DNA from: a virus
Reading direction: 5' to 3' (one strand)
UHGV virus genome: UHGV-0172014
DNA: 12,663 bases
The translations under genes were made by a program, and so were the position numbers. Below the pieces are notes generated by a model. That model was not told the DNA's origin and made no database searches. It was given only the letters and a program-made list of their open reading frames with translations. Each line of letters starts with the position of its first letter. The stretch's first letter is position 1. Shown piece by piece: positions 615 through 10,605 of the stretch.

Positions 615-1151
615 TCATGCGCATTTGCGTAACTCCGATAACTCGTTAAAGCGTTCCATAAACATCCCGTAGGCATGGCCTGGCGACTGTGGAATAACTT
701 TGAACATCTCTGTTGCCGGGATACCTTCCAGTACAGGCCAGAAAGAGCCATCATCAAGCCCGAGATCGCGGCGTTCGGTTGCCAGCATGATGAGATCGGC
801 ATATTTCACGGGCGTGCTCATAACCGGGGGTAACCCGTATTTCTCACGGATTACGGCGTCTATTTTTTCTTCCATCCGTTTATAGTCAGGAAGAAGGCGT
901 TTCAGTGGCGCGGGGATGTCCTGACAATACGCTTCTGTTGCATCATGCATTAACGCTTCATAAGCAAATTCCTGTGATACCAGCTGGCTGCAAAGCACCG
1001 CATGTTGGGCAACGCTGTAGAAGTGTGAAAGATGACCAGCAAAGCGACAGATATTTGAAAGGGAAACCGCGATATCGTTAATAACGATGTCATTTTTATT
1101 TATCTTGTCATAATAAAAATGCTTCCCGGAAAAAGTTTTAATAAATGACAT
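615..1151 (-). CDS. HD-domain phosphohydrolase (YfbR-like 5'-deoxynucleotidase family)
   Basis: Start moved to the internal ATG at 1149-1151, which has a GGAG SD 6 nt upstream; the track start at 1214 has none. Conserved H...HD signature (RFAGHLSHF...ALMHDATEAY) typical of HD hydrolases found in phage early regions. Confidence 0.7.
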   Translation of the reverse strand: MSFIKTFSGKHFYYDKINKNDIVINDIAVSLSNICRFAGHLSHFYSVAQHAVLCSQLVSQEFAYEALMHDATEAYCQDIPAPLKRLLPDYKRMEEKIDAVIREKYGLPPVMSTPVKYADLIMLATERRDLGLDDGSFWPVLEGIPATEMFKVIPQSPGHAYGMFMERFNELSELRKCA

Positions 1152-1214
1152 TTCGTTCTCCACTTTAAATGCGCTGCACCGCGCTGAATTTTGGTAAAAG
1201 GAAGCCCTCTCCAT

Positions 1215-1560
1215 CCGGCGATTATTGAGTCAATTACATTTCCATGAATGCCCCCGTAGGGGCGGTTAGTTTCTCCACAAAACAGAGAAGAACACCTGCG
1301 GTGGCAGCCGCCCGGATGGATTGGGTTATGAGCCCGTCGTCCGGTGATGCTCTTCTCTGTTTTGTAAAAAGGACGGTACCAGCCGGAAGCAAGGGTACAA
1401 ACTGGTACCTCCAGGACTACACACAGCATAAAGTTGTGGTGCCGGGTGCCTCCCGGTGCCTGGCGAAGGTTGCACACCAGACGGGTGGGTATCCACAGAA
1501 GGTCGACTGTCAGCCTCAACCTTAACCCGCGTGCGCTGAGCCGCATTCACCACAACGCTA
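1215..1560. other. GC-rich, hairpin-dense noncoding segment (possible structured RNA or decayed remnant)
   Basis: No protein-like ORF in any frame; the overlapping track ORFs are Arg/Pro/Cys/His-rich. Contains a perfect 15-bp inverted repeat (ACAAAACAGAGAAGA 1277-1291 / TCTTCTCTGTTTTGT 1351-1365), and hairpins GCCCC-CGTA-GGGGC (1250-1263), GGTACCAG/CTGGTACC (about 1376-1409) and CCGGG/CCCGG (about 1440-1455). Confidence 0.3.
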
Positions 1561-1630
1561 AGGATTCTCTCTGGTTAAAAATACTTAGCTGTTATGTGCC
1601 TGCTTTTAGCCACATCAGGCGAGGTGGACC

Positions 1631-1690
1631 TGGTTATTCCCCAACAACAAGGATTCGGTTAATCTGGTTATCCCCAACAACGCAAAAGGA
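1631..1690 (+). repeat. Two direct repeats (CTGGTTAT(T)CCCCAACAAC) immediately upstream of the 1697 start codon
   Basis: TGGTTATTCCCCAACAAC at 1631-1648 and TGGTTATCCCCAACAAC at 1666-1682, about 35 bp apart; a third CTGGTTA occurs near 1573. Position suggests a regulator-binding site or 5'-UTR element. Confidence 0.5.
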
Positions 1691-1696
1691 AAAGAA

Positions 1697-2131
1697 ATGT
1701 CCGGTAATATCTACACGCTGTACAAATCCCACTGTGAAAATGTTGGAAAGTATCGGGGCATTGAAATCAGTGGGGTAGTGTCATCAGTCGAAATAAGCAA
1801 AGTGGAATCAAGGGCAACATTACTTACTCTTCTGGACCTTGTCTTACATGAGCACCGGAAGAAATTCGGCACTCCCTATAATCAGTTGAATGGGAAAAAG
1901 GCTCTGGTTCACCTTATTCTGATGAAGCATCACTGGATGCCAAAACAGATTAATGAGATGAAATTTGATGAACTTCTTCTTTCAATTCAGGATGAACTCA
2001 CACTTGATAAAATAAGCGTAACCGCCCAGAAATTTTTAGATTATCGAGACTGGAGATCACAAATTCATCACTTTGATGATTTTGACGAAAATGAATGGGA
2101 TCCTAATTTGTCTGCACAATATCTAAAGTAA
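1697..2131 (+). CDS. Hypothetical protein (144 aa), AT-rich orphan gene opposite to the leftward operon
   Basis: ATG at 1697 with AAAGGA SD; uninterrupted 144 codons; visibly AT-rich relative to flanking phage genes; no family recognised. Confidence 0.6.
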   Translation: MSGNIYTLYKSHCENVGKYRGIEISGVVSSVEISKVESRATLLTLLDLVLHEHRKKFGTPYNQLNGKKALVHLILMKHHWMPKQINEMKFDELLLSIQDELTLDKISVTAQKFLDYRDWRSQIHHFDDFDENEWDPNLSAQYLK

Positions 2132-2309
2132 CATCCTGTGATAAAACCGTGATTTCCTGATCCAGTTTTTTTAAGGAGTCTATTGTTTCCTGTCGATAAG
2201 ACAGCACTTCACGAAGCTGGTTTATAGCTGCCAGCTTCTTTGCCATCCACTCGTAAATTTCCTCATTTGTGTATCCGGGCGCGACGATTTTGGGTTCTGT
2301 TTTGTGCAT
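2103..2309 (-). CDS. Hypothetical small protein (68 aa), first gene of the putative leftward early operon
   Basis: ATG at 2307-2309 (minus) preceded by a strong GAGGAGGTG SD with a 6-nt spacer (track start at 2324 lacks one). The 3' end overlaps the convergent 1697-2131 gene by 29 nt. Not Arg-rich, so not obviously N-like. Confidence 0.55.
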   Translation of the reverse strand: MHKTEPKIVAPGYTNEEIYEWMAKKLAAINQLREVLSYRQETIDSLKKLDQEITVLSQDVTLDIVQTN

Positions 2310-2368
2310 TTCACACCTCCTCAAGTTATCAGTTACTTGTTGATGGGGACCAAATTGTTAAAGAGCTA

Positions 2369-2396
2369 AGCGTCCTGTAGGGCGCTTTTTTGTTGC
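2369..2396 (+). terminator. Rho-independent terminator (plus strand only)
   Basis: Stem AGCGTCC / GGGCGCT (7 bp, one G-U pair), loop TGTA, followed by TTTTTTGTTG. The reverse complement has no U tract after the hairpin, so it should not stop leftward transcripts. Confidence 0.55.
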
Positions 2397-2564
2397 TAAC
2401 GAATCACCCTAGACTTTATATGCCCCAGGCGGCTACTTCGTGGGCGTCCTGCCTGTTCGTTTTTGACATTTACTGACCGCTTACGACACATGCACTATGC
2501 ACCGTGTTGCAACCAGATTTTGTTGTAATCCTGTAGTTGGTCTGGAACAAAAGATAAAATCAAA

Positions 2565-2602
2565 TTGCGAGATATGCAAGTAGTATTTTGCGAGATATGC
2601 AA
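2565..2602. promoter_or_regulatory. OL-like operator pair: two identical 15-mers TTGCGAGATATGCAA (2565-2579 and 2588-2602)
   Basis: Each 15-mer has dyad ends (TTGC...GCAA) and matches the TTGCG-N5-TGCAA motif found in the cI-cro intergenic region; located on the far side of cI from OR, as lambda OL is. Confidence 0.5.
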
Positions 2603-2610
2603 AATTATGG

Positions 2611-2636
2611 GTGATAAAAAGCCACCTTTCGGTGGC
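2611..2636 (-). terminator. Rho-independent terminator downstream of cI
   Basis: Minus-strand RNA forms GCCACC-GAAA-GGUGGC followed by UUUUUAUCAC (plus strand: AAAAAGCCACCTTTCGGTGGC), about 20 nt after the cI stop. Confidence 0.6.
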
Positions 2637-2656
2637 CGATGGATGGGATATTGAGG

Positions 2657-3349
2657 TTAATTATGTCTCTTAAGGGTTTGCGACTGACTGATTAAGACCT
2701 TTCCAAAGACCATGAATCGGTGTTCGTTTTCGCTAGTAATTCCCCATTCACGGTAAATCTGGTTATCAGAAATCACCAGCAGTTTGTCAGGAATCATTTG
2801 AAGTCTTTTAACGTATATTTTGTCATCAAAACCAAAGACATATATACCATCACCATCAAACTGATTGATGCTGACATCGACGAAGATGAGATCTCCTGGC
2901 TCAATGGTTGGACACATACTGTCCCCACGAACGTTGATAACTTTGATGTGATTGGCTGGTCGTCCGCCGAACATTGATACAGCATTATCAGTTCTGTATT
3001 CGATGGCATGAATCACATCAATGACATCACCGCCCTGGATAAGGCCATTTCCCGCACTGGCACTGATATCCAGCATTTCAATACGGAACACATCCTTCAC
3101 CTGCGCAACATCCTCATTATTACTGTTTTTATATACAGTATTACTTTTGAGGGCAGAGGTAAAGAGATCAGCAATATCAACACCTAAGCTCTTGGCAATA
3201 TTACTCAGTGTTTGTTCGGTAAATTGTTTCTGCTTACCCGTTTCTAAGCGCGAGATGTTCGCCGCATCTACTCCTATTGCTTCAGCGAGATCGGCGATTT
3301 TCATGTTCTTCGCTTGGCGAAGTTGTCTGACTCGGTTTCCTATGTTCAT
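2657..3349 (-). CDS. cI: CI-type prophage repressor (N-terminal HTH_XRE plus C-terminal S24 LexA-like autopeptidase)
   Basis: N-terminal HTH (RQAKNMKIADLAEAIGVDAANISRLETGKQ) and C-terminal S24 catalytic motifs (VRGDSMCPTIEPGD with Ser; YVKRL with Lys); divergent from a cro-like gene. No SD before the ATG at 3347-3349, consistent with a leaderless mRNA as in lambda cI. Confidence 0.9.
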   Translation of the reverse strand: MNIGNRVRQLRQAKNMKIADLAEAIGVDAANISRLETGKQKQFTEQTLSNIAKSLGVDIADLFTSALKSNTVYKNSNNEDVAQVKDVFRIEMLDISASAGNGLIQGGDVIDVIHAIEYRTDNAVSMFGGRPANHIKVINVRGDSMCPTIEPGDLIFVDVSINQFDGDGIYVFGFDDKIYVKRLQMIPDKLLVISDNQIYREWGITSENEHRFMVFGKVLISQSQTLKRHN

Positions 3350-3446: not shown

Positions 3447-3707
3447 ATGCAATCACCATTACGAAATGTGCGTAAGGCGCATTGTTTCACTTTGCAGCAT
3501 GTTGCTGCGGGTGTTCAAGTCAATCCAGCGACGTTGAGTCGTATTGAGAGGCTGGAGCAGATTCCATCTATCGAGCTTGCAGAACGTTTAGCCAATTTTT
3601 TTAAGGGTGAAATCAGCGAAATGCAGATTCTTTATCCGGCACGTTTTCAATCTAGCCAAAACCAGAATGGGTTTAAACCACAGGAACAGGAGGTGAACCG
3701 TGGGTAA
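3447..3707 (+). CDS. cro: Cro-like HTH regulator (86 aa)
   Basis: ATG at 3447 with GGAGGA SD; HTH segment (AHCFTLQHVAAGVQVNPATLSRIERLEQ); divergent from cI across the operator cluster. Confidence 0.75.
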   Translation: MQSPLRNVRKAHCFTLQHVAAGVQVNPATLSRIERLEQIPSIELAERLANFFKGEISEMQILYPARFQSSQNQNGFKPQEQEVNRG

Positions 3708-4251
3708 GCATCACTGGAAAGTAGACAAACAGCCTGAGTGGTACGTGAAAGCTGTCAGAAAAACTATCGCAGCGTTGCCGGGGGGTTACGCTGAAGCTGC
3801 TGACTGGCTGGATGTAACAGAGAACGCATTATTTAACCGCCTTCGTGCCGATGGCGATCAGATTTTCCCGCTGGGATGGGCAATGATTTTGCAACGTGCT
3901 GGTGGAACTCACTTCATTGCTGATGCTGTGGCGCAGTCTGCAAATGGCGTCTTTGTGTCTCTTCCTGACGTCGAGGATGTGGACAACGCCGATATTAACC
4001 AGCGTCTGCTGGAAGTCATTGAACAGATCGGCAGTTATTCAAAACAGATTCGTTCAGCAATCGAAGACGGTGTAGTGGAACCGCATGAGAAGACAGCAAT
4101 TAATGACGAGCTCTACCTCTCAATTTCGAAGCTGCAGGAGCATGCAGCACTGGTCTACAAAATCTTTTGCATTTCAGAAAGTAATGACGCCCGCGAGTGT
4201 GCAGCTCCGGGCGCCGTGGCGTGTCGTGACTGTGGAGAAACTAACGCATGA
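3700..4251 (+). CDS. Early regulatory protein in the CII/YdaT position (183 aa); family uncertain
   Basis: GTG start at 3700 with AGGAGG SD (6-nt spacer), overlapping the cro stop; position immediately after cro matches CII/YdaT-like genes of lambdoid prophages. Functional call is positional and from memory. Confidence 0.55.
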
Positions 4252-4586
4252 ACAGTTTAACAACACACTACCGTCGCTCGCAACTGATTGCGCTTCCTGT
4301 ACCGGGTGGAAAAGCGAAGGTGGAGTATTGCTATGCAGTTAATGTACCAGGTGACAGGGAAATTGTAACCCACAGCTTTGCTGAGTGGGCTGTGGGTGAT
4401 TTCAACCGGCAGAAGGAGACAGTCCTTTGCGACAAGTTAACCGCTGGTTCAAAGATCACTACGGAGTGCCCGTCAGAGTCATTCGTTGGGAGCCGGAAAC
4501 ACAACGAGTTATCTACCTCCGCGAAGGCTATGAGCATGAGTGCTTCAGCCCGCTCGAACAGTTTCGTCGTAAATTCAGGGAAATAG
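4248..4586 (+). CDS. Hypothetical protein; possibly frameshifted (protein-like N-terminal ~57 codons, low-complexity tail)
   Basis: ATG at 4248 overlaps the upstream stop (ATGA). The first ~57 residues look protein-like; the remainder (…[22 protein letters not shown]) looks like off-frame translation, while a different frame becomes protein-like from about 4400. Confidence 0.35.
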
Positions 4587-4606
4587 AGGTCGGTCATGAG
4601 CACTAA
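4427..4606 (+). CDS. Small ORF (59 aa) in an alternative frame, TTG start with AAGGAG SD; or the C-terminal part of a frameshifted gene
   Basis: Frame is open from 4400 to the TAA at 4604-4606; TTG at 4427 sits 8 nt after AAGGAG (4413-4418). Translation (…[58 protein letters not shown]) is compositionally protein-like. Not in the ORF track (non-ATG start). Confidence 0.35.
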
Positions 4607-5537
4607 ATTAACCGGCTATGTATGGGATGGTTGCGCTGCATCAGGCATGAAATTATCCAGCGTGGCAATTATGGCCCGCCTGGCTGATTTCAGTAATGAC
4701 GAAGGTGTGTGCTGGCCATCAATTGAAACTATTGCCCGTCAGATTGGCGCGGGGATGAGTACCGTCAGGACGGCTATCGCACGGCTGGAAGCAGAAGGCT
4801 GGTTAACGCGTAAGGCGCGTCGCCAGGGTAACCGCAATGCGTCGAATGTTTATCAGCTTAACGTTGCGAAGCTTCAGGCAGCGGCATTTTCTCAACTGTC
4901 AGATTCTGACCCGTCAAAATCTGACGCATCAAAATCTGACCCGTCAAAATTTGATGCGTCGAAATCTGGCAAAAAAGCGGGTTTTCACCCGTCAGAATCT
5001 GGCGGGGATCCGTCAGTAAAATCAAAACATGATCCGTCAGATAAAAAACCTTCTCGTCCGGACGCTTCGCAACCGGACACGCAGACGGATGAACAGGATT
5101 TTTTAACTCGCCATCCTGATGCGGTTGTATTCAGCCCTAAAAAGCGCCAGTGGGGAACGCAGGATGATTTGACCTGCGCACAGTGGCTCTGGAAAAAAAT
5201 CATCGCCCTGTACGAGCAAGCCGCCGAATGTGACGGCGAGGTGGTTCGTCCCAAAGAACCGAACTGGACAGCCTGGGCAAACGAAATTCGCCTGATGTGT
5301 GTGCAGGATGGTCGTACTCACAAACAAATCTGCGAGATGTACAGCCGCGTCAGCCGCGATCCGTTCTGGTGCCGTAACGTGCTCAGCCCGTCGAAGTTGC
5401 GGGAAAAATGGGATGAGCTTTCCCTGCGCTTATCACCGTCCGTCAGCACGTACACCGAAAAACGCGAAGACCCGTACTTCAAATCCAGTTACGACAACGT
5501 GGACTACAGCCAGATCCCGGCAGGATTCAGGGGGTGA
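4596..5537 (+). CDS. Replication initiator (O-like: N-terminal HTH DNA-binding domain, low-complexity linker, C-terminal domain)
   Basis: ATG at 4596 with GAGG SD; N-terminal winged-helix/HTH-like region (SVAIMARLADFSNDEGVCWPSIETIARQIGAGMSTVRTAIARLEAEGWL); a tandem repeat array inside the linker, as the lambda origin lies inside gene O; position after the cro/CII block. Confidence 0.65.
   Translation: MSTKLTGYVWDGCAASGMKLSSVAIMARLADFSNDEGVCWPSIETIARQIGAGMSTVRTAIARLEAEGWLTRKARRQGNRNASNVYQLNVAKLQAAAFSQLSDSDPSKSDASKSDPSKFDASKSGKKAGFHPSESGGDPSVKSKHDPSDKKPSRPDASQPDTQTDEQDFLTRHPDAVVFSPKKRQWGTQDDLTCAQWLWKKIIALYEQAAECDGEVVRPKEPNWTAWANEIRLMCVQDGRTHKQICEMYSRVSRDPFWCRNVLSPSKLREKWDELSLRLSPSVSTYTEKREDPYFKSSYDNVDYSQIPAGFRG
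4896..5050. repeat. Iteron-like direct repeat array (candidate replication origin) inside the initiator gene
   Basis: Five head-to-tail 15-bp units (CTGTCAGATTCTGAC, CCGTCAAAATCTGAC, GCATCAAAATCTGAC, CCGTCAAAATTTGAT, GCGTCGAAATCTGGC; 4896-4970), then three degenerate copies (CCGTCAGAATCTGGC 4989-5003, CCGTCAGTAAAATC about 5010-5023, CCGTCAGATAAAAAACC 5034-5050) with A-rich tracts (AAAAAAGC, ATAAAAAACC). Confidence 0.6.
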
Positions 5538-5539
5538 TC

Positions 5540-6028
5540 ATGAGTCTTTTGAATGAAGTTCAGAAATTCATTGAAGCCCATCCGGGGTGTACTTCCGGAG
5601 ACATTGCGGATGCTTTTGCAGGTTACTCACGGCAGCGCGTTCTGCAGTCAGCAAGCAAGTTACGTCAGAGTGGGCGTGTGGCTCACCGTTGTGAAGGAGA
5701 TACACGCAGACATTTCCCGCGCCTGACTGAGAGAGCGCAGGAGCCGGAACCACAATCTGTTCGTGAAACCAGACCTGTGCGCAATTTCTATGTCGGCACT
5801 AACGACCCCCGGGTGATTTTGTGCCTGACCCGCCAGGCTGAAGAACTGGAGTCCAGGGGCTTATTCCGTCGAGCTGCAACGGTGTGGATGGAGGCATTCC
5901 GTGAAAGCCACTCCCAGCCAGAACGAAACAATTTTCTGGCGCATCGTGAGCGGTGCTTACGGAAAAGCAGCAAGCGCGCTGCATCGGGTGAAGAGTGGTA
6001 TCTGTCAGGGAATTACGTGGGGGCTTAA
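5540..6028 (+). CDS. Hypothetical regulator; C-terminal region resembles the PerC/Pch family
   Basis: ATG at 5540 with GGGGGTGA SD (track GTG at 5534 overlaps the SD). C-terminal ELESRGLFRRAATVWMEAF...ERNNFLAHRERCL resembles the (E)xxGLWRRAAxRW core I recall for PerC-like prophage regulators; from memory, not searched. Confidence 0.5.
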   Translation: MSLLNEVQKFIEAHPGCTSGDIADAFAGYSRQRVLQSASKLRQSGRVAHRCEGDTRRHFPRLTERAQEPEPQSVRETRPVRNFYVGTNDPRVILCLTRQAEELESRGLFRRAATVWMEAFRESHSQPERNNFLAHRERCLRKSSKRAASGEEWYLSGNYVGA

Positions 6029-6681
6029 TGAGTAATAAATATTGCCAGGCGCTGGTGGAGCTGCGGAACAAACCAGCCCATGAACTGAAGGAAGTGGGCG
6101 ATCAGTGGCGCACGCCGGACAACATTTTCTGGGGAATTAACACCCTGTTTGGCCCGTTTGTTCTGGATCTGTTTACTGATGGTGATAACGCCAAATGTGC
6201 CGCTTATTACACTGCGGAAGACAACGCGCTGGCGCATGACTGGTCAGAACGTCTTGCGGAGCTTAAAGGTGCTGCCTTTGGTAATCCCCCGTACAGCCGC
6301 GCCAGTCAGCATGAGGGGCAATACATCACCGGCATGCGTTACATCATGAAACATGCCAGTGCTATGCGTGATAAAGGCGGGCGCTATGTTTTCCTGATCA
6401 AAGCTGCCACCAGCGAAGTTTGGTGGCCGGAAGATGCAGACCATATTGCTTTTATTCGCGGGCGTATTGGTTTTGAACTGCCAGCCTGGTTTATCCCGAA
6501 GGACGAGAAGCAGGTGCCGACAGGCGCTTTCTTCGCTGGTGCTATTGCTGTTTTCGACAAGACCTGGAAGGGACCGGCAATCAGCTACATCGGGCGCGAT
6601 GAACTTGAGGCATGTGGTGAGGCCTTTCTGGCGCAGGTTCGCCAGCAGGCGGAAAAACTGGTCAGGGAGATGGCGGCATGA
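6028..6681 (+). CDS. Phage DNA N-6-adenine methyltransferase (Dam-like)
   Basis: ATG at 6028 overlapping the upstream stop (TAATG), GTGGGGG SD; catalytic NPPY motif (AAFGNPPYSRAS); size and position typical of lambdoid phage Dam methyltransferases. Confidence 0.8.
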   Translation: MSNKYCQALVELRNKPAHELKEVGDQWRTPDNIFWGINTLFGPFVLDLFTDGDNAKCAAYYTAEDNALAHDWSERLAELKGAAFGNPPYSRASQHEGQYITGMRYIMKHASAMRDKGGRYVFLIKAATSEVWWPEDADHIAFIRGRIGFELPAWFIPKDEKQVPTGAFFAGAIAVFDKTWKGPAISYIGRDELEACGEAFLAQVRQQAEKLVREMAA

Positions 6682-7004
6682 CGACGTTAACTCAATGCCA
6701 GCAGCAGGTGCTGGATATGCTGATTTCTTACCAGAAAGAACGTGGCTTCCCGCCAACCAATCAGGAGGTGGCAACCATGCTGGGATACCGTTCAGTGAAT
6801 GCAGCGGTGGAGCATCTTCGCGCACTGGAGAAAAAAGGTGTCATCACGATAAAGCGTGGCGTGGCCCGGGGGATAACGCTTCATACCGCGGTGAAGGACG
6901 ACGACAGCGAGGCGGTCGGGATTATCCGCTCACTGCTTGCCGGTGAGGAAAACGCAAGGCTGCGTGCAACCCACTGGTTACATGAGAGAGGCCTGAAAGT
7001 ATGA
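6678..7004 (+). CDS. LexA N-terminal DNA-binding-domain-like protein (108 aa) lacking the S24 peptidase domain
   Basis: Clear similarity to the LexA winged-helix domain (ours QQQVLDMLISYQKERGFPPTNQEVATMLGYRSVNAAVEHLRALEKKGVITI versus LexA [52 protein letters not shown], recalled); no Ser/Lys catalytic domain; ATGA overlap with Dam. Confidence 0.8.
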   Translation: MTTLTQCQQQVLDMLISYQKERGFPPTNQEVATMLGYRSVNAAVEHLRALEKKGVITIKRGVARGITLHTAVKDDDSEAVGIIRSLLAGEENARLRATHWLHERGLKV

Positions 7005-7390
7005 AGCTGATCTTGCCTTTCCCGCCCAGCGTGAACACGTACTGGCGACACCCCAACAAAGGGGCGTTTGCTGGTAAGAGCCTGATAAGCGCGGCGGGGC
7101 GAAAATTCCAGAGCGCAGCGTGCGCAGCAATAGTTGAGCAGTTACGTCGTCTGCCGAAACCAACGTCGGCACCTGCTTCAGTGGAGATCGTGTTGTTTCC
7201 TCCGGATTACCGGATCCGCGATCTGGACAACTATAACAAGGCGCTGTTTGACGCCCTGACCCACGTGGGTGTGTGGGAAGACGACAGCCAGGTGAAAAGA
7301 ATGCTGGTGGAGTGGGGACCGGTTATCCCGGAAGGGAAGGTCGAGATCACTATCAGTAAGTACGAGAAACCGGCGGGTGCAGCCGCCTGA
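7001..7390 (+). CDS. rusA: Holliday junction resolvase RusA
   Basis: N-terminal MKLILPFPPSVNTYW and core RDLDNYNKALFDALTHVGVWEDDSQV match the RusA family; ATGA overlap with the upstream gene; typical NinR-region position. Confidence 0.9.
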   Translation: MKLILPFPPSVNTYWRHPNKGAFAGKSLISAAGRKFQSAACAAIVEQLRRLPKPTSAPASVEIVLFPPDYRIRDLDNYNKALFDALTHVGVWEDDSQVKRMLVEWGPVIPEGKVEITISKYEKPAGAAA

Positions 7391-7409
7391 TTAAGAGGAG
7401 AAACGAAGT

Positions 7410-8219
7410 ATGAATAATCTGATGGTCATTGATGGTATTGAAGTTCGTCGTGATGCTTATGGGCGTTACAGCCTGAACGATCTGCATCGCGCAGCAGTAG
7501 CATCTGGTGCAAATGCCAGAACCAAGGAGCCGGGAAAGTTTCTTTCCAGCCAACAAACTGTTGAACTTGTTCATGAATTGACCAACACCCAGAATTTGGG
7601 TGTTGACCCGGTGAGTGTGATTCATGGGGGAAATGAACGGGGAACTTATGTCTGCAAGGAACTGGTGTATGCCTATGCAATGTGGATCAGCCCGTCATTC
7701 CATCTGAAGGTGATCCGTACTTTCGACATGGTAACCAGCGCACCGGAAAAATTATCCGGACAGGCTGCTGACAAGATGCAGGCTGGTGTGATTCTGCTGG
7801 ACTTTATGCGTCGGGAGTTAAACCTGTCTAACTCATCTGTGCTTGGTGCCTGTCAGAAACTCCAGGAGGCTGTTGGCTTACCGAATCTGGCACCGCGCTA
7901 TGCCATTGATGCTCCTGCTGATGCACACGATGGCTCAAGTCGCCCGACACTGTCACTGAGTGCACTGCTGAAACAGTATGGTATACGCCTGACGGCTAAT
8001 CAGGCATATCACCAGATGGTGAAACTGGGGATCGTCGAGCAGCGCGAACGATACAGCCGTACCGCGATTAACAACATCAAAAAATTCTGGTCGCTGACAG
8101 CGAAAGGTTGCATGTTCGGCAAGAACATCACCAGTCCCGCAAATCCGCGCGAGACGCAGCCGCATTTCTTCGAATCCCGATTCCCTGAGCTGTTAAAGCT
8201 GCTCGATACCGTTCATTGA
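7410..8219 (+). CDS. KilA-N domain protein (possible antirepressor-type regulator)
   Basis: ATG at 7410 with AGAGGAGAA SD; N-terminal KilA-N/APSES-like signature (IDGIEVRRDAYGRYSLNDLHRAAVASG...KELVYAYAMWISPSFHLKVI). Confidence 0.75.
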   Translation: MNNLMVIDGIEVRRDAYGRYSLNDLHRAAVASGANARTKEPGKFLSSQQTVELVHELTNTQNLGVDPVSVIHGGNERGTYVCKELVYAYAMWISPSFHLKVIRTFDMVTSAPEKLSGQAADKMQAGVILLDFMRRELNLSNSSVLGACQKLQEAVGLPNLAPRYAIDAPADAHDGSSRPTLSLSALLKQYGIRLTANQAYHQMVKLGIVEQRERYSRTAINNIKKFWSLTAKGCMFGKNITSPANPRETQPHFFESRFPELLKLLDTVH

Positions 8220-8226
8220 GGTGACC

Positions 8227-9216
8227 GTGAGAGCACTACTGACCCCTGAAATTGCCCCGCGTATGGGGATCGTATTGTTCAGGCCAGGTTCAGAGCTGAT
8301 GCCCCTGTTTATGCAGGGGCGTGTCCTGCTGGAGCCTGAGCCGGAGCGTTATTCATCTTTCGCCAGTGGTGCCGTTCCGGCGGCATCACAACCGCTGGCG
8401 GATGATCCTGCCGTTCGGGCCGTGTTCCGCAATGAGGCAGTGATCCGTCGTGCTGGTGGCGTGGAATGTCTTGAAAGCTGGTTACTTCGTGAAAAAGGCT
8501 GTCAGTGGCCTCACTCCGACTGGCACAGCGAAAACATGACCACAACGCGCCATGCGCCGGGCGCAATCCGTCTGTGCTGGCACTGCGATAACCAGTTGCG
8601 TGACCAGTTCACGGAACGGCTGGAATCAATGGCAACGGATAACTGTGCCCGCTGGGTGTTATCTGTTGTGCGCCGTGATCTCGGTTTTGATGATAGTCAC
8701 GTTGTGACAATGCCGGAACTGTGCTGGTGGCTGGTTCGTAATGACCTGGCGGATGCCTTACCGGAAAGTGCAGCCCGTAAGGCACTGAGATTACCGAAGC
8801 CTGTTGTGCCGTCTGTTACCCGGGAAAGTGACCTTGTGCCTTCGGTTCCTGCCACCAGCATCATCCAGGATAAGGCGAAAAAGGTGCTGGCGCTGAAAGT
8901 GGATCCGGAGTCGCCGGAGTCTTTTATGTTACGCCCAAAACGTCGCCGCTGGGTTAATGAAAAGTACACGCGCTGGGTTAAGACACAGCCGTGTGCATGT
9001 TGTGGAAAGCCTGCTGATGATCCCCACCACCTGATAGGCCACGGTCAGGGGGGAATGGGTACAAAAGCGCATGACCTCTTTGTGTTGCCTTTGTGCAGAA
9101 AGCATCACGACGAACTGCATGCGGATACCGTGGCATTTGAAGAGAAGTATGGCTCTCAGCTGGAGCTGATATTTCGTTTTATCGATCGTGCGCTGGCAAC
9201 TGGCGTACTGGGCTGA
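8227..9216 (+). CDS. DUF968-like phage protein with a C-terminal Cys/His (HNH-like) cluster
   Basis: In-frame GTG at 8227 has a GAGG SD 5 nt upstream; the track start GTG 8221 overlaps that SD. C-terminal CACCGKPADDPHHLIGHGQGG...LPLCRKHHDELHAD; position between the KilA-N gene and Q matches DUF968 proteins of lambdoid prophages (family from memory). Confidence 0.65.
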   Translation: MRALLTPEIAPRMGIVLFRPGSELMPLFMQGRVLLEPEPERYSSFASGAVPAASQPLADDPAVRAVFRNEAVIRRAGGVECLESWLLREKGCQWPHSDWHSENMTTTRHAPGAIRLCWHCDNQLRDQFTERLESMATDNCARWVLSVVRRDLGFDDSHVVTMPELCWWLVRNDLADALPESAARKALRLPKPVVPSVTRESDLVPSVPATSIIQDKAKKVLALKVDPESPESFMLRPKRRRWVNEKYTRWVKTQPCACCGKPADDPHHLIGHGQGGMGTKAHDLFVLPLCRKHHDELHADTVAFEEKYGSQLELIFRFIDRALATGVLG

Positions 9217-9601: not shown

Positions 9602-10345
9602 CTAAATTACTTGGATGATGAAAGAAACAATCAATGTTGCTAAACCACCAATAGCAGATACTTTAAATTCCGAACCACGAAATACCATCTTCCCATTGAC
9701 CTTTATATTATTTGCAATGAATGGTGATATTCCAACGGCCGCACTCATGAAATATAAAGAAGAAATCATTTTCTTTTGAAACTCATTCAAGTCTGGCATT
9801 AACAGTGTAATTGATAAAAAAATACAAAAACTTAAAAATCCAATAATAGCAGTGACAATTAATTTCCAATTCATTGGGGTACCTATAGTAAATCCATCGA
9901 TTGGCAATTTTCGAGACTCAAATTCCGCAATAATAGCGGTGTAAATATCTTTTGATGAGTACTTTTTAATGATTCTTTGGATGTTTGATAGACCATCTTT
10001 GCTATACAATACAATATTGTCTGGATCAATTTTTAGGTGTTTAATGTTTGCCACCATCATGTCGTAGTATTCTAAATAAGTTTCCAGAACTGCTCGACAG
10101 TCTCCAGCTAACGAAATGGCGAATGTCTTATTGTCATCCAGTTTACATAAATCTACTTTTTGAACTAACTTAACAGCGGTATTAAAATATTTTGAAGCAT
10201 GCTGCTGAACTTCATGTAGGTCAGCAAGGTTTGATATACCGCCATTACGCACGTATGGCTGAATACCACGTAAAAATCTTTCCTTTGCAGAAGTCAGCTC
10301 CGACGTTACTTCGTCGGGGCTGATCTGAAACACATCATTATTCAT
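9602..10345 (-). CDS. Hypothetical membrane-anchored protein (247 aa): soluble N-terminal domain plus 2-3 C-terminal TM helices
   Basis: ATG at 10343-10345 overlapping the upstream stop (ATGA coupling). Hydrophobic segments WKLIVTAIIGFLSFCIFLSITLL, ISSLYFMSAAVGISPFIANNI and VSAIGGLATLIVSFIIQVI; very AT-rich; no family recognised. Confidence 0.7.
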   Translation of the reverse strand: MNNDVFQISPDEVTSELTSAKERFLRGIQPYVRNGGISNLADLHEVQQHASKYFNTAVKLVQKVDLCKLDDNKTFAISLAGDCRAVLETYLEYYDMMVANIKHLKIDPDNIVLYSKDGLSNIQRIIKKYSSKDIYTAIIAEFESRKLPIDGFTIGTPMNWKLIVTAIIGFLSFCIFLSITLLMPDLNEFQKKMISSLYFMSAAVGISPFIANNIKVNGKMVFRGSEFKVSAIGGLATLIVSFIIQVI

Positions 10346-10605
10346 TTTTGTTTTGGTGCCAGCATTCTTAATGCAGTGTTAAGATCAGAGTTGTCCACAC
10401 TTTCAGTGATTAAGAATTGGGTATTGGGAACATGACGGCTGATAATGCCTTGGAGCATGCTACGACTTATAACTTTACCACTTTGAAGCGCGGAGTTAAT
10501 GTCATTTTGTATCAAAGTGATTTCACGCTCGGTACAGGGGAAACCCCACCGAGTAACATTTGCATATTCACCAATTTTTTTCTTAAATTCTAGGTAGTTA
10601 CTCAT
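10342..10605 (-). CDS. Hypothetical small soluble protein (87 aa), first gene of the two-gene cassette
   Basis: ATG at 10603-10605 with AAGGAG SD (7-nt spacer); slightly basic, no TM segment; translationally coupled to the downstream membrane protein; AT-rich. Confidence 0.65.
   Translation of the reverse strand: MSNYLEFKKKIGEYANVTRWGFPCTEREITLIQNDINSALQSGKVISRSMLQGIISRHVPNTQFLITESVDNSDLNTALRMLAPKQK

Follow-up and report, generated by a model that had tools for sequence, protein, structure and literature searches.

An exchangeable ECs1072-family cassette with a predicted sieB/sas-type control region in the early-left operon of an SfIV/SfV-type lambdoid prophage

The viral genome UHGV-0172014, a stretch of 12,663 nucleotides (nt) referred to here as the window, carries in its early-left operon a gene for a 144-amino-acid (aa) protein of the ECs1072 family, which runs opposite to the leftward genes around it (the yfdR-like gene, the gene of a 68-aa protein and cI; Table 1). 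This raises the question of what such a gene does at this place and how its expression is controlled. The window comes from a lambdoid prophage of Escherichia coli of the SfIV/SfV type, of which it is the early region; between positions 1200 and 2700 it shares 99.9% identity with E. coli E1 and 99.6% with Shigella phage SfIV. On balance, we favour the view that this is a lysogen-expressed accessory gene, which would be transcribed from a P_sieB-type promoter and silenced by a sas-type antisense RNA from the early-left promoter PL, and whose role is probably exclusion or abortive infection. A first-pass annotation made from the sequence had described the gene as an inserted, independently transcribed accessory gene of the early-left region, and this agrees with its boundaries in SfII and SfV, with the homology to the P22 sieB promoter and with a homologue in phage ST64B that has its own promoter.

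Comparison with SfII and SfV using blastn showed that the left flank is conserved to exactly position 1627 and that the right flank starts again at 2398. Both phages lack the segment between these positions, and other small genes fill its place. Since the boundaries are sharp and enclose different small genes, the segment is exchangeable, and the comparison with related prophages that had been proposed as a check of the insertion thus turned out in its favour. Segment 1628-2397 is a swappable prophage accessory ("moron") cassette in the slot that is held by sieB in lambda and P22. The AT-richness noted earlier is evident as well: the G+C content is 38.6% in the open reading frame (ORF), 40.5% in the cassette, 48.2% in the window and 53.3% in positions 3700-9200, the immunity gene cI being likewise low (42.1%). 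The whole 1.5-kb arrangement is present in SfIV and in 319 of 5426 complete E. coli genomes (~6%).

The gene had been taken for an orphan, which it is not. Its product is identical to WP_000016389.1, named "ECs1072 family phage-associated protein" by the Prokaryotic Genome Annotation Pipeline (PGAP), and it matches NCBIfam NF033230 over profile positions 2-142 of 142 (157.8 bits, E 1.7e-46; the curated cutoff is 70 bits) and phrog_5286, a PHROG with no assigned function, over positions 1-144 of 144 (E 1.5e-90). A profile search of 1.84 billion representatives yielded 76 family clusters at 50% identity, nearly all of 145-155 aa, in which R39, L50, H53-R54, L64, G66, A69, H72, W80 and W134 are conserved and R54, H72 and W134 are invariant. 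The family was found in lambdoid prophages of Enterobacterales only, with relatives in Shigella, Salmonella, Klebsiella and Serratia; a genome scan with alignment A2 recovered three loci only, and queries of IMG/VR with single distant family proteins found nothing. The AlphaFold model is confident (predicted local distance difference test 94) and describes an all-helical, soluble protein. The proposed homology and structure searches were successful in part: they led to a named family, whereas no solved structural relative of the model was found, the BFVD fold search was empty and sequence-profile searches of the PDB gave no match. Pfam gave nothing consistent across 48 family members and no match for the window protein, including none to the SieB family PF14163, and no membrane segments were found in it. 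In PADLOC-DB v2 neither the 144-aa nor the 68-aa protein had a match at E <= 1. A helical enzyme of the HD-domain or HEPN type was considered and rejected, as neither a fold match nor a catalytic motif (H..HD..D or Rx4-6H) was seen.

Two direct repeats precede the gene and are nearly identical, as had been noticed before (18 of 19 positions with one gap; the ungapped score is 79%). They are not the gene's own, as had been assumed, but belong to a promoter and sas-like module shared by many cargo genes. In phages of Hafnia, Klebsiella and E. coli, the 30-nt element to their left directly precedes rightward genes that differ from one another, and a pattern scan located a 31-nt variant of it in more than 120 IMG/VR contigs. 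In P22, lambda, VT1-Sakai, HK140 and HK620 the element and then two copies of ACCCCTACAG precede sieB. The P22 records annotate P_sieB at 29690-29720 and the mapped start of the sieB RNA at 29727, which is where the second P22 repeat starts; these annotations place the first repeat of P22 at the -35 region and the second at +1. From this correspondence, the element and the two repeats upstream of the 144-aa gene are to be seen as homologous to the sieB control region of P22 and lambda, which comprises P_sieB and, on the opposite strand, sas. Transcription is predicted to start at about 1670-1672, which would give a leader of ~26 nt; the ORF has an AAGGA Shine-Dalgarno sequence at 1686-1690, six nt before its ATG.

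The opposite strand of the module is equally informative. The sas RNA of P22 has been sequenced as a minus-strand RNA of 127 nt with reads in infected cells only, which starts opposite the sieB ATG, crosses both repeats and has the 31-nt element near its 3' end (2026 small-RNA study, PMC13397905). The sequenced RNA is the exact reverse complement of the module, the 31-nt element included. According to reviews, sas is the antisense RNA by which translation changes over from SieB to Esc (PMC12197685, PMC7067206). The minus strand of the window at ~1581-1701 is identical to the P22 sas region at 66 of 100 aligned positions, and we infer that a similar RNA is made in this phage.

Two observations argue that the RNA, and not the promoter alone, is under selection. 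Of 58 unique variants, nearly all fold into a hairpin adjoining the element; the mean minimum free energy (MFE) is -8.8 against -4.2 +/- 2.3 for shuffled sequences, and the hairpin is kept through many different stems (UUCUCG/CGAGAA, UCCUG/CAGGA, UUCUUGG/CCAAGAA, GCUGG/CCAGC, CCUUUUA/UAAAAGG, UUUCCUU/AAGGAAA). When the 58 variants were folded, the antisense strand of repeat 1 gave a hairpin with a GGGG loop. Moreover, the two repeats change together according to leader type, being two copies of CCCCAACAAC, of CCCCTACAG or of TCCACAGTCA. Since the hairpin persists while its stem varies and the repeats co-vary, selection at the RNA level is the reading that these sequences suggest.

Taken together with the known behaviour of sieB, these features allow a mechanism to be proposed. 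In the lysogen the 144-aa gene would be transcribed rightward from the P_sieB-type promoter (-10 at 1660-1665, start at ~1670-1672), and the transcript, antisense to the YdfC-family gene on the other strand, would end at the terminator at 2368-2392. Firing of PL, upon induction or upon infection by a phage with the same module, would send leftward transcription across the cassette, and the PL transcript would yield the sas-like antisense RNA from ~1701 to 1581. Both of its GGGG-loop hairpins could serve as starting points for pairing with the mRNA, whose 5' end contains CCCC, and the antisense RNA would also be complementary to the Shine-Dalgarno sequence and the start codon, so that pairing would stop translation of the 144-aa gene. 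The protein, possibly together with its YdfC-like partner, might thus be a lysogen-only factor harmful to lytic growth. Its most likely role would be superinfection exclusion or abortive infection against other phages, by analogy to sieB and because silencing of this kind makes sense only if the product is unwelcome in the lytic phase.

Table 1. Features of the early-left region of UHGV-0172014 (positions in the window)
Feature	Position	Strand	Basis or remark
yfdR-like gene	615-1214	-	
STnc100/PasD-like small RNA region, context left of the module	1364-1586	-	Rfam RF02076
Predicted sas-like antisense RNA from the PL transcript; would cover start codon, Shine-Dalgarno sequence, both repeats and 30-nt element	~1581-1701	-	ends by analogy with P22
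Conserved 30-nt element GCCTGCTTTTAGCCACATCAGGCGAGGTGG, left cassette edge, near the 3' end of the predicted sas-like RNA	1598-1627	.	IMG/VR scan, P22/lambda comparison
Exchangeable cassette (two repeats, ECs1072-family gene, YdfC-family gene, plus-strand terminator)	1628-2397	.	blastn against SfII and SfV
Direct repeat 1 CTGGTTATTCCCCAACAAC, matches the -35-region repeat of P_sieB	1630-1648	+	alignment, P22 promoter annotation
Predicted -10 hexamer TAATCT, aligned to P22 TAAACT	1660-1665	+	leader alignment
Direct repeat 2 CTGGTTATCCCCAACAAC, predicted mRNA 5' end	1664-1681	+	second P22 repeat at mapped +1
ECs1072-family gene, 144 aa, ATG start	1697-2131	+	runs against yfdR-like gene, 68-aa gene and cI
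YdfC-family gene, small coiled-coil protein of 68 aa, first gene downstream of PL	2103-2309	-	phrog_1744, tblastn
boxA-like GCTCTTTAACAA on the PL transcript, in nutL position	2355-2366	-	exact match; P22 nutL boxA for comparison
Intrinsic terminator of the rightward transcript	2368-2392	+	8-bp stem (5 G-C) at 2368-2387, then T-run
S24/HTH repressor gene cI	2657-3349	-	

The locus shares several features with sieB-esc-sas of P22 and lambda. The slot is the same in both cases: the gene is set into the early-left operon against its direction and converges with the first gene behind PL. The promoter and leader sequences are homologous too, with the 30/31-nt element, a -10 that can be aligned and two repeats, at -35 and +1, that co-vary, and the antisense strand is homologous to the sas RNA. 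The switching of sieB by sas RNA in P22 was reportedly described by Ranade and Poteete in 1993. There are differences as well: SieB is a membrane protein (PF14163) with an in-frame Esc, whereas the cassette protein is unrelated, soluble and helical; the convergent neighbour is N/gp24 there and a YdfC-family protein here; and the cassette has an extra, dedicated plus-strand terminator, unlike the sieB locus of P22 and lambda.

This terminator had been described as acting on the plus strand only. Indeed, the hairpin (centroid energy -11.5 kcal/mol) is followed by a U-tract on the plus strand and by none on the minus strand, and it is the best terminator-like site of the region, in which there are 10 such sites against 2.3 expected. 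What the earlier description did not include is the other strand, where the hairpin at 2368-2387 is followed by GCUCUUUAACAA with an exact boxA, for which 0.09 matches would be expected even with one mismatch. With the OL-like repeats (2565-2602) on one side and the first PL gene on the other, this boxA has the position of nutL in P22, and hairpin and boxA are conserved beside a diverged gene pair in locus L028. Because a perfect minus-strand boxA adjoins it, the hairpin may also be part of a nutL-like site. Such an arrangement at 2322-2395 (-) includes a second hairpin, CAAGUAACUGAUAACUUG (~2322-2339), just before the Shine-Dalgarno sequence of the 68-aa gene. An arginine-rich protein resembling N was not evident in the window.

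Evidence on expression comes from other family members, and ECs1072 itself gave a signal on microarrays of the Sakai strain. Phage ST64B contains an unannotated family member of 144 aa (32% identity over the aligned region; E 7.8e-43 against the family profile), which is convergent with sb50 and overlaps it by 71 nt. The RefSeq record of ST64B omits this ORF, which is found at 2345-2779 (+) of locus L145, corresponding to the region 36,435-36,869 of NC_004313. Its coordinates and length agree with those of STMMW_20121 of Salmonella Typhimurium D23580, with which we therefore equate it. STMMW_20121 is transcribed from its own promoter in lysogens, under almost all conditions and antisense to lytic genes (Owen et al., 2020, PMC7067206). 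It reaches 60-270 transcripts per million (TPM) in most of 17 conditions (4.9 in one), compared with 0.3-33 for the holin gene, 22-257 for its partner STMMW_20131 (sb50) and ~2-7 for the Q-like gene (PMC7067206). The homologue thus has in common with the window gene the protein family, the orientation antisense to lytic genes and a YdfC-like convergent partner (sb50/STMMW_20131, with the 71-nt overlap); it differs in lying between a Q-like antiterminator gene and the holin gene instead of beside cI, and in having no P_sieB/sas-type module upstream. The gene family had been catalogued before, and Owen et al. (2020, PMC7067206) had already pointed to the homologue as a candidate accessory gene.

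One might also think of a moron for host physiology or virulence that acts outside phage-phage conflict, or of an ordinary early gene that is merely inverted. Morons in such positions do include non-defence genes, and ECs1072 itself gave a growth-phase-dependent microarray signal in the Sakai strain; however, the gene has its control module in common with sieB, is restricted to lambdoid prophages of Enterobacterales and stands outside the leftward operon, which makes either possibility quite improbable. The gene is not universally syntenic and has no known early function; the first-pass annotation would have counted against its proposal a gene conserved throughout syntenic phages with such a function.

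The module serves far more than one gene. Directly behind it we found at least 30 unrelated ORF families (126 instances in the loci examined, L013-L129), including two SieB types, an 81-aa SfV-type protein, zinc-ribbon proteins, coiled-coil plus zinc-ribbon proteins and ECs1072-family members. Pfam and PADLOC searches with 10 other cargo proteins recognised SieB alone, and the literature consulted covers the P2/P4 hotspots and BstA, with no description of this slot or of such an adaptor found in it. The link between the ECs1072 family and the sas module, the breadth of cargo behind this module and the conserved ECs1072/YdfC pair appear to be new. If the proposed control holds, the P22 sas/sieB observation would become a general design rule for lambdoid prophages, in which lysogen-only genes stand behind a portable promoter-plus-antisense module and are switched off in the phage's own lytic growth; the 30/31-nt element would then be a sequence handle for collecting candidate exclusion and defence genes.

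The cargo itself offers some further details. Almost no cargo family carries an annotation, and the 81-aa protein (MTFDEKELDN…) is unannotated in SfV (L004, ~3407). Other examples are a 76-aa zinc ribbon (MSKLTTMKVACPDCG…), coiled-coil plus zinc-ribbon proteins of 160-210 aa (PhiR49_1, Kp4882-1) and a 113-aa protein (MNQFYVHVRLFEATAEQT…), whose gene in L086 likewise converges with a YdfC-like gene. In L135 (3001-4321) cassettes stand in tandem, an ECs1072-like plus YdfC-like pair being followed by sieB behind a diverged element, GCCTGATTATTTAAACACTTCAGGCGGCAGTGC.

The 68-aa gene, which the 144-aa gene overlaps at its 3' end by 29 nt (2103-2131) exactly as first described, is a conserved partner and not a chance neighbour. 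Its product matches phrog_1744 (E 4.8e-34) and is 38-39% identical to annotated ydfC/YdfC-family sequences over 97% of the query (tblastn, E 1e-8 to 2e-8); ydfC is a y-gene of K-12 in the dicB early operon of Qin. Using gene calls and profile searches, we surveyed the partner in 17 diverged ECs1072 lineages. A profile-significant YdfC-like ORF was present in 13 of them, convergent and with a 3' overlap of 29-323 nt; in three further lineages the convergent overlapping ORF bears no recognisable resemblance to YdfC, and in the remaining one (L008) a bidirectional terminator takes the place of the partner. The orientation against the operon and a convergent overlapping partner are thus kept in 16 of 17 lineages, down to ~22% identity. 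The pair lies either beside cI/PL (the window, L006, L136, L149, L150, L152) or right after a Q-like gene (ST64B, L139), and both positions are immediately downstream of a lytic promoter.

This position invites the idea that the gene is a regulator of lysogeny or of the timing of lysis, whose transcript, protein or both would counter the YdfC-like early gene or a leaky lytic promoter (PL here, PR' after Q in ST64B) and so stabilise the prophage, in the manner of the aQ and OOP antisense RNAs of lambda. The pair always follows closely upon a lytic promoter under antitermination control, the mRNA runs antisense across the entire partner gene, and the 3' overlap of 29-323 nt is conserved. An antisense role would, however, not need a conserved protein of 145 aa with invariant R54, H72 and W134 and a confident fold, and the related phages SfII and SfV manage without both genes. 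We therefore consider such a regulator unlikely.

The constancy of the pair could likewise point to a toxin-antitoxin (TA)-like or two-component system, in which one product is harmful and is neutralised by the other product or by the 3'-overlapping RNAs. The two genes occur together in 13-16 of the 17 lineages and shift as a unit between early-left and late positions, and in ST64B both are expressed in the lysogen (TPM ~100 each), whereas the lytic genes on either side are silent. On the other hand, YdfC-family genes occur without ECs1072 in the Qin-like loci L016 and L109 and, with other cargo, in L086; the ECs1072 lineage L008 has no partner; and neither protein resembles a known toxin or antitoxin. 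Moreover, the long overlaps seem largely attributable to a conserved EWDP motif, whose antisense shadow gives the partner a tail that reads DP(T/I)P. All in all, we hold a TA-like system to be distinctly unlikely. Convergent type I TA loci with 3' overlaps of tens to hundreds of nt are known from Bacillus prophages (txpA/RatA, bsrG/SR4); here, unlike there, both partners encode conserved proteins and there is no small hydrophobic toxin. A type III TA system (ToxIN/CptIN/TenpIN) was rejected, as there are only two repeat copies, 34 nt apart, which straddle the promoter homologue, no terminator stands between repeats and gene, and no toxin match was obtained with PADLOC or Pfam. The combination of repeats, gene and terminator was also considered as a retron and dismissed, there being no reverse transcriptase.

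Returning to the lysogen-expressed accessory gene with sieB-like control, a number of observations weigh against it and have to be set beside the evidence above. Compared with shuffled sequence, the window's own leader shows no gain in stability (z +0.7 and +2.4). All copies of the 30-nt element that were found have the same stems, and its structure and role are thus putative. The gene pairs that follow the Q gene in ST64B and L139 do without the P_sieB/sas module, which is therefore not obligatory for the family. Reading of the 144-aa ORF revealed no in-frame internal start with a Shine-Dalgarno sequence, as would be expected for an Esc-like product, and the SieB-to-Esc switch of P22 is consequently not literally transferable. 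The partner in ST64B is also expressed in the lysogen, which fits a two-gene system better than a partner acting as a lytic-only antidote. Finally, since neither a PADLOC match nor a fold relative was found, the word "defence" is drawn from position and regulation only.

We see a wider version of the accessory-gene reading as possible, but tentative: that ECs1072 and its YdfC-like partner form an unrecognised two-gene anti-phage system (exclusion or abortive infection) with a fold that has no counterpart among solved structures, and that P_sieB/sas, rather than being specific to sieB, is a general plug-in adaptor, in which a lysogenic promoter is combined with an antisense switch for self-immunity, for dozens of unrelated and largely uncharacterised cargos. 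The 144-aa gene is a good candidate for a new anti-phage function, and if this reading were true it would provide a first functional context for YdfC. A parallel can be drawn to BstA/aba, which Owen and co-workers reportedly described in 2021 as a lysogen-expressed abortive-infection gene near the immunity region with a device that spares the phage's own lytic cycle. Self-immunity to BstA is said to reside in a DNA element, whereas the device proposed here would be an antisense RNA; BstA and the 144-aa protein have no relation in sequence or fold.

The 30/31-nt element itself can be read in two further ways. It could form an H-type pseudoknot, in which stem S1 (GCCUG/CAGGC) is interleaved with S2 (CCAC/GUGG). 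It could also supply a -35 (TTTTCA) and, 18 nt further on, the TG of an extended -10 (TGnTATNCT), which fits short "type A" leaders only. As all stem positions are invariant, sequence comparison does not discriminate between the pseudoknot and the promoter.

Left of the module, the block at 1364-1586 (-) matches the full length of the Rfam small RNA (sRNA) model STnc100 (RF02076) with 38.4 bits (E 2e-6), which is below the gathering score of 47; at gathering thresholds, Rfam found nothing in the window. Matches of 35-40 bits were likewise obtained in SfII, SfV, PhiR49, ST64B and Kp4882 (L003 3164-3379, L004 3104-3319, L009 2613-2836, L144 2692-2810, L012 2355-2492). STnc100 is related to the PasD sRNAs of pathogenic E. 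coli (2026 preprint). The block holds no convincing ORF and is annotated by PGAP as a frameshifted hypothetical gene. Its orientation is leftward in all cases, with 10-20 nt between its 5' end and the 30-nt element, and processing of a single PL transcript may release both it and the sas-like RNA. The genes yfdP and yfdQ, which are present in SfIV, SfV and PhiR49_1, are missing in the window, and the yfdR-like gene directly abuts the conserved sRNA block (1215-1252).

On the right side, a block of ~65 nt just downstream of PL/OL (2398-2464, …GGCGGCTACTTCGTGGGCGTCCTGCCTGTTCG…) is conserved in SfV, SfII, SfIV, ST64B and metagenomic relatives. It is kept whatever cassette follows (also in L144 at 3104-3162, in L020 and in L136) and could serve the PL transcript as a leader or in antitermination. 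A weaker plus-strand terminator-like site, the hairpin at 2440-2456, lies within this shared right flank. Immediately left of cI, two exact copies of TTGCGAGATATGCAA at 2565-2579 and 2588-2602, 23 nt apart, are probably the OL operators. A second strongly AT-rich block (29-33% G+C) is located at 9602-10605 (-), between the Q-like region and the lysis genes. It comprises a leftward ORF of 247 aa with predicted hydrophobic C-terminal segments and a leftward ORF of 87 aa; its sole match was a non-significant one to PADLOC DndH, and it is probably another accessory insertion.

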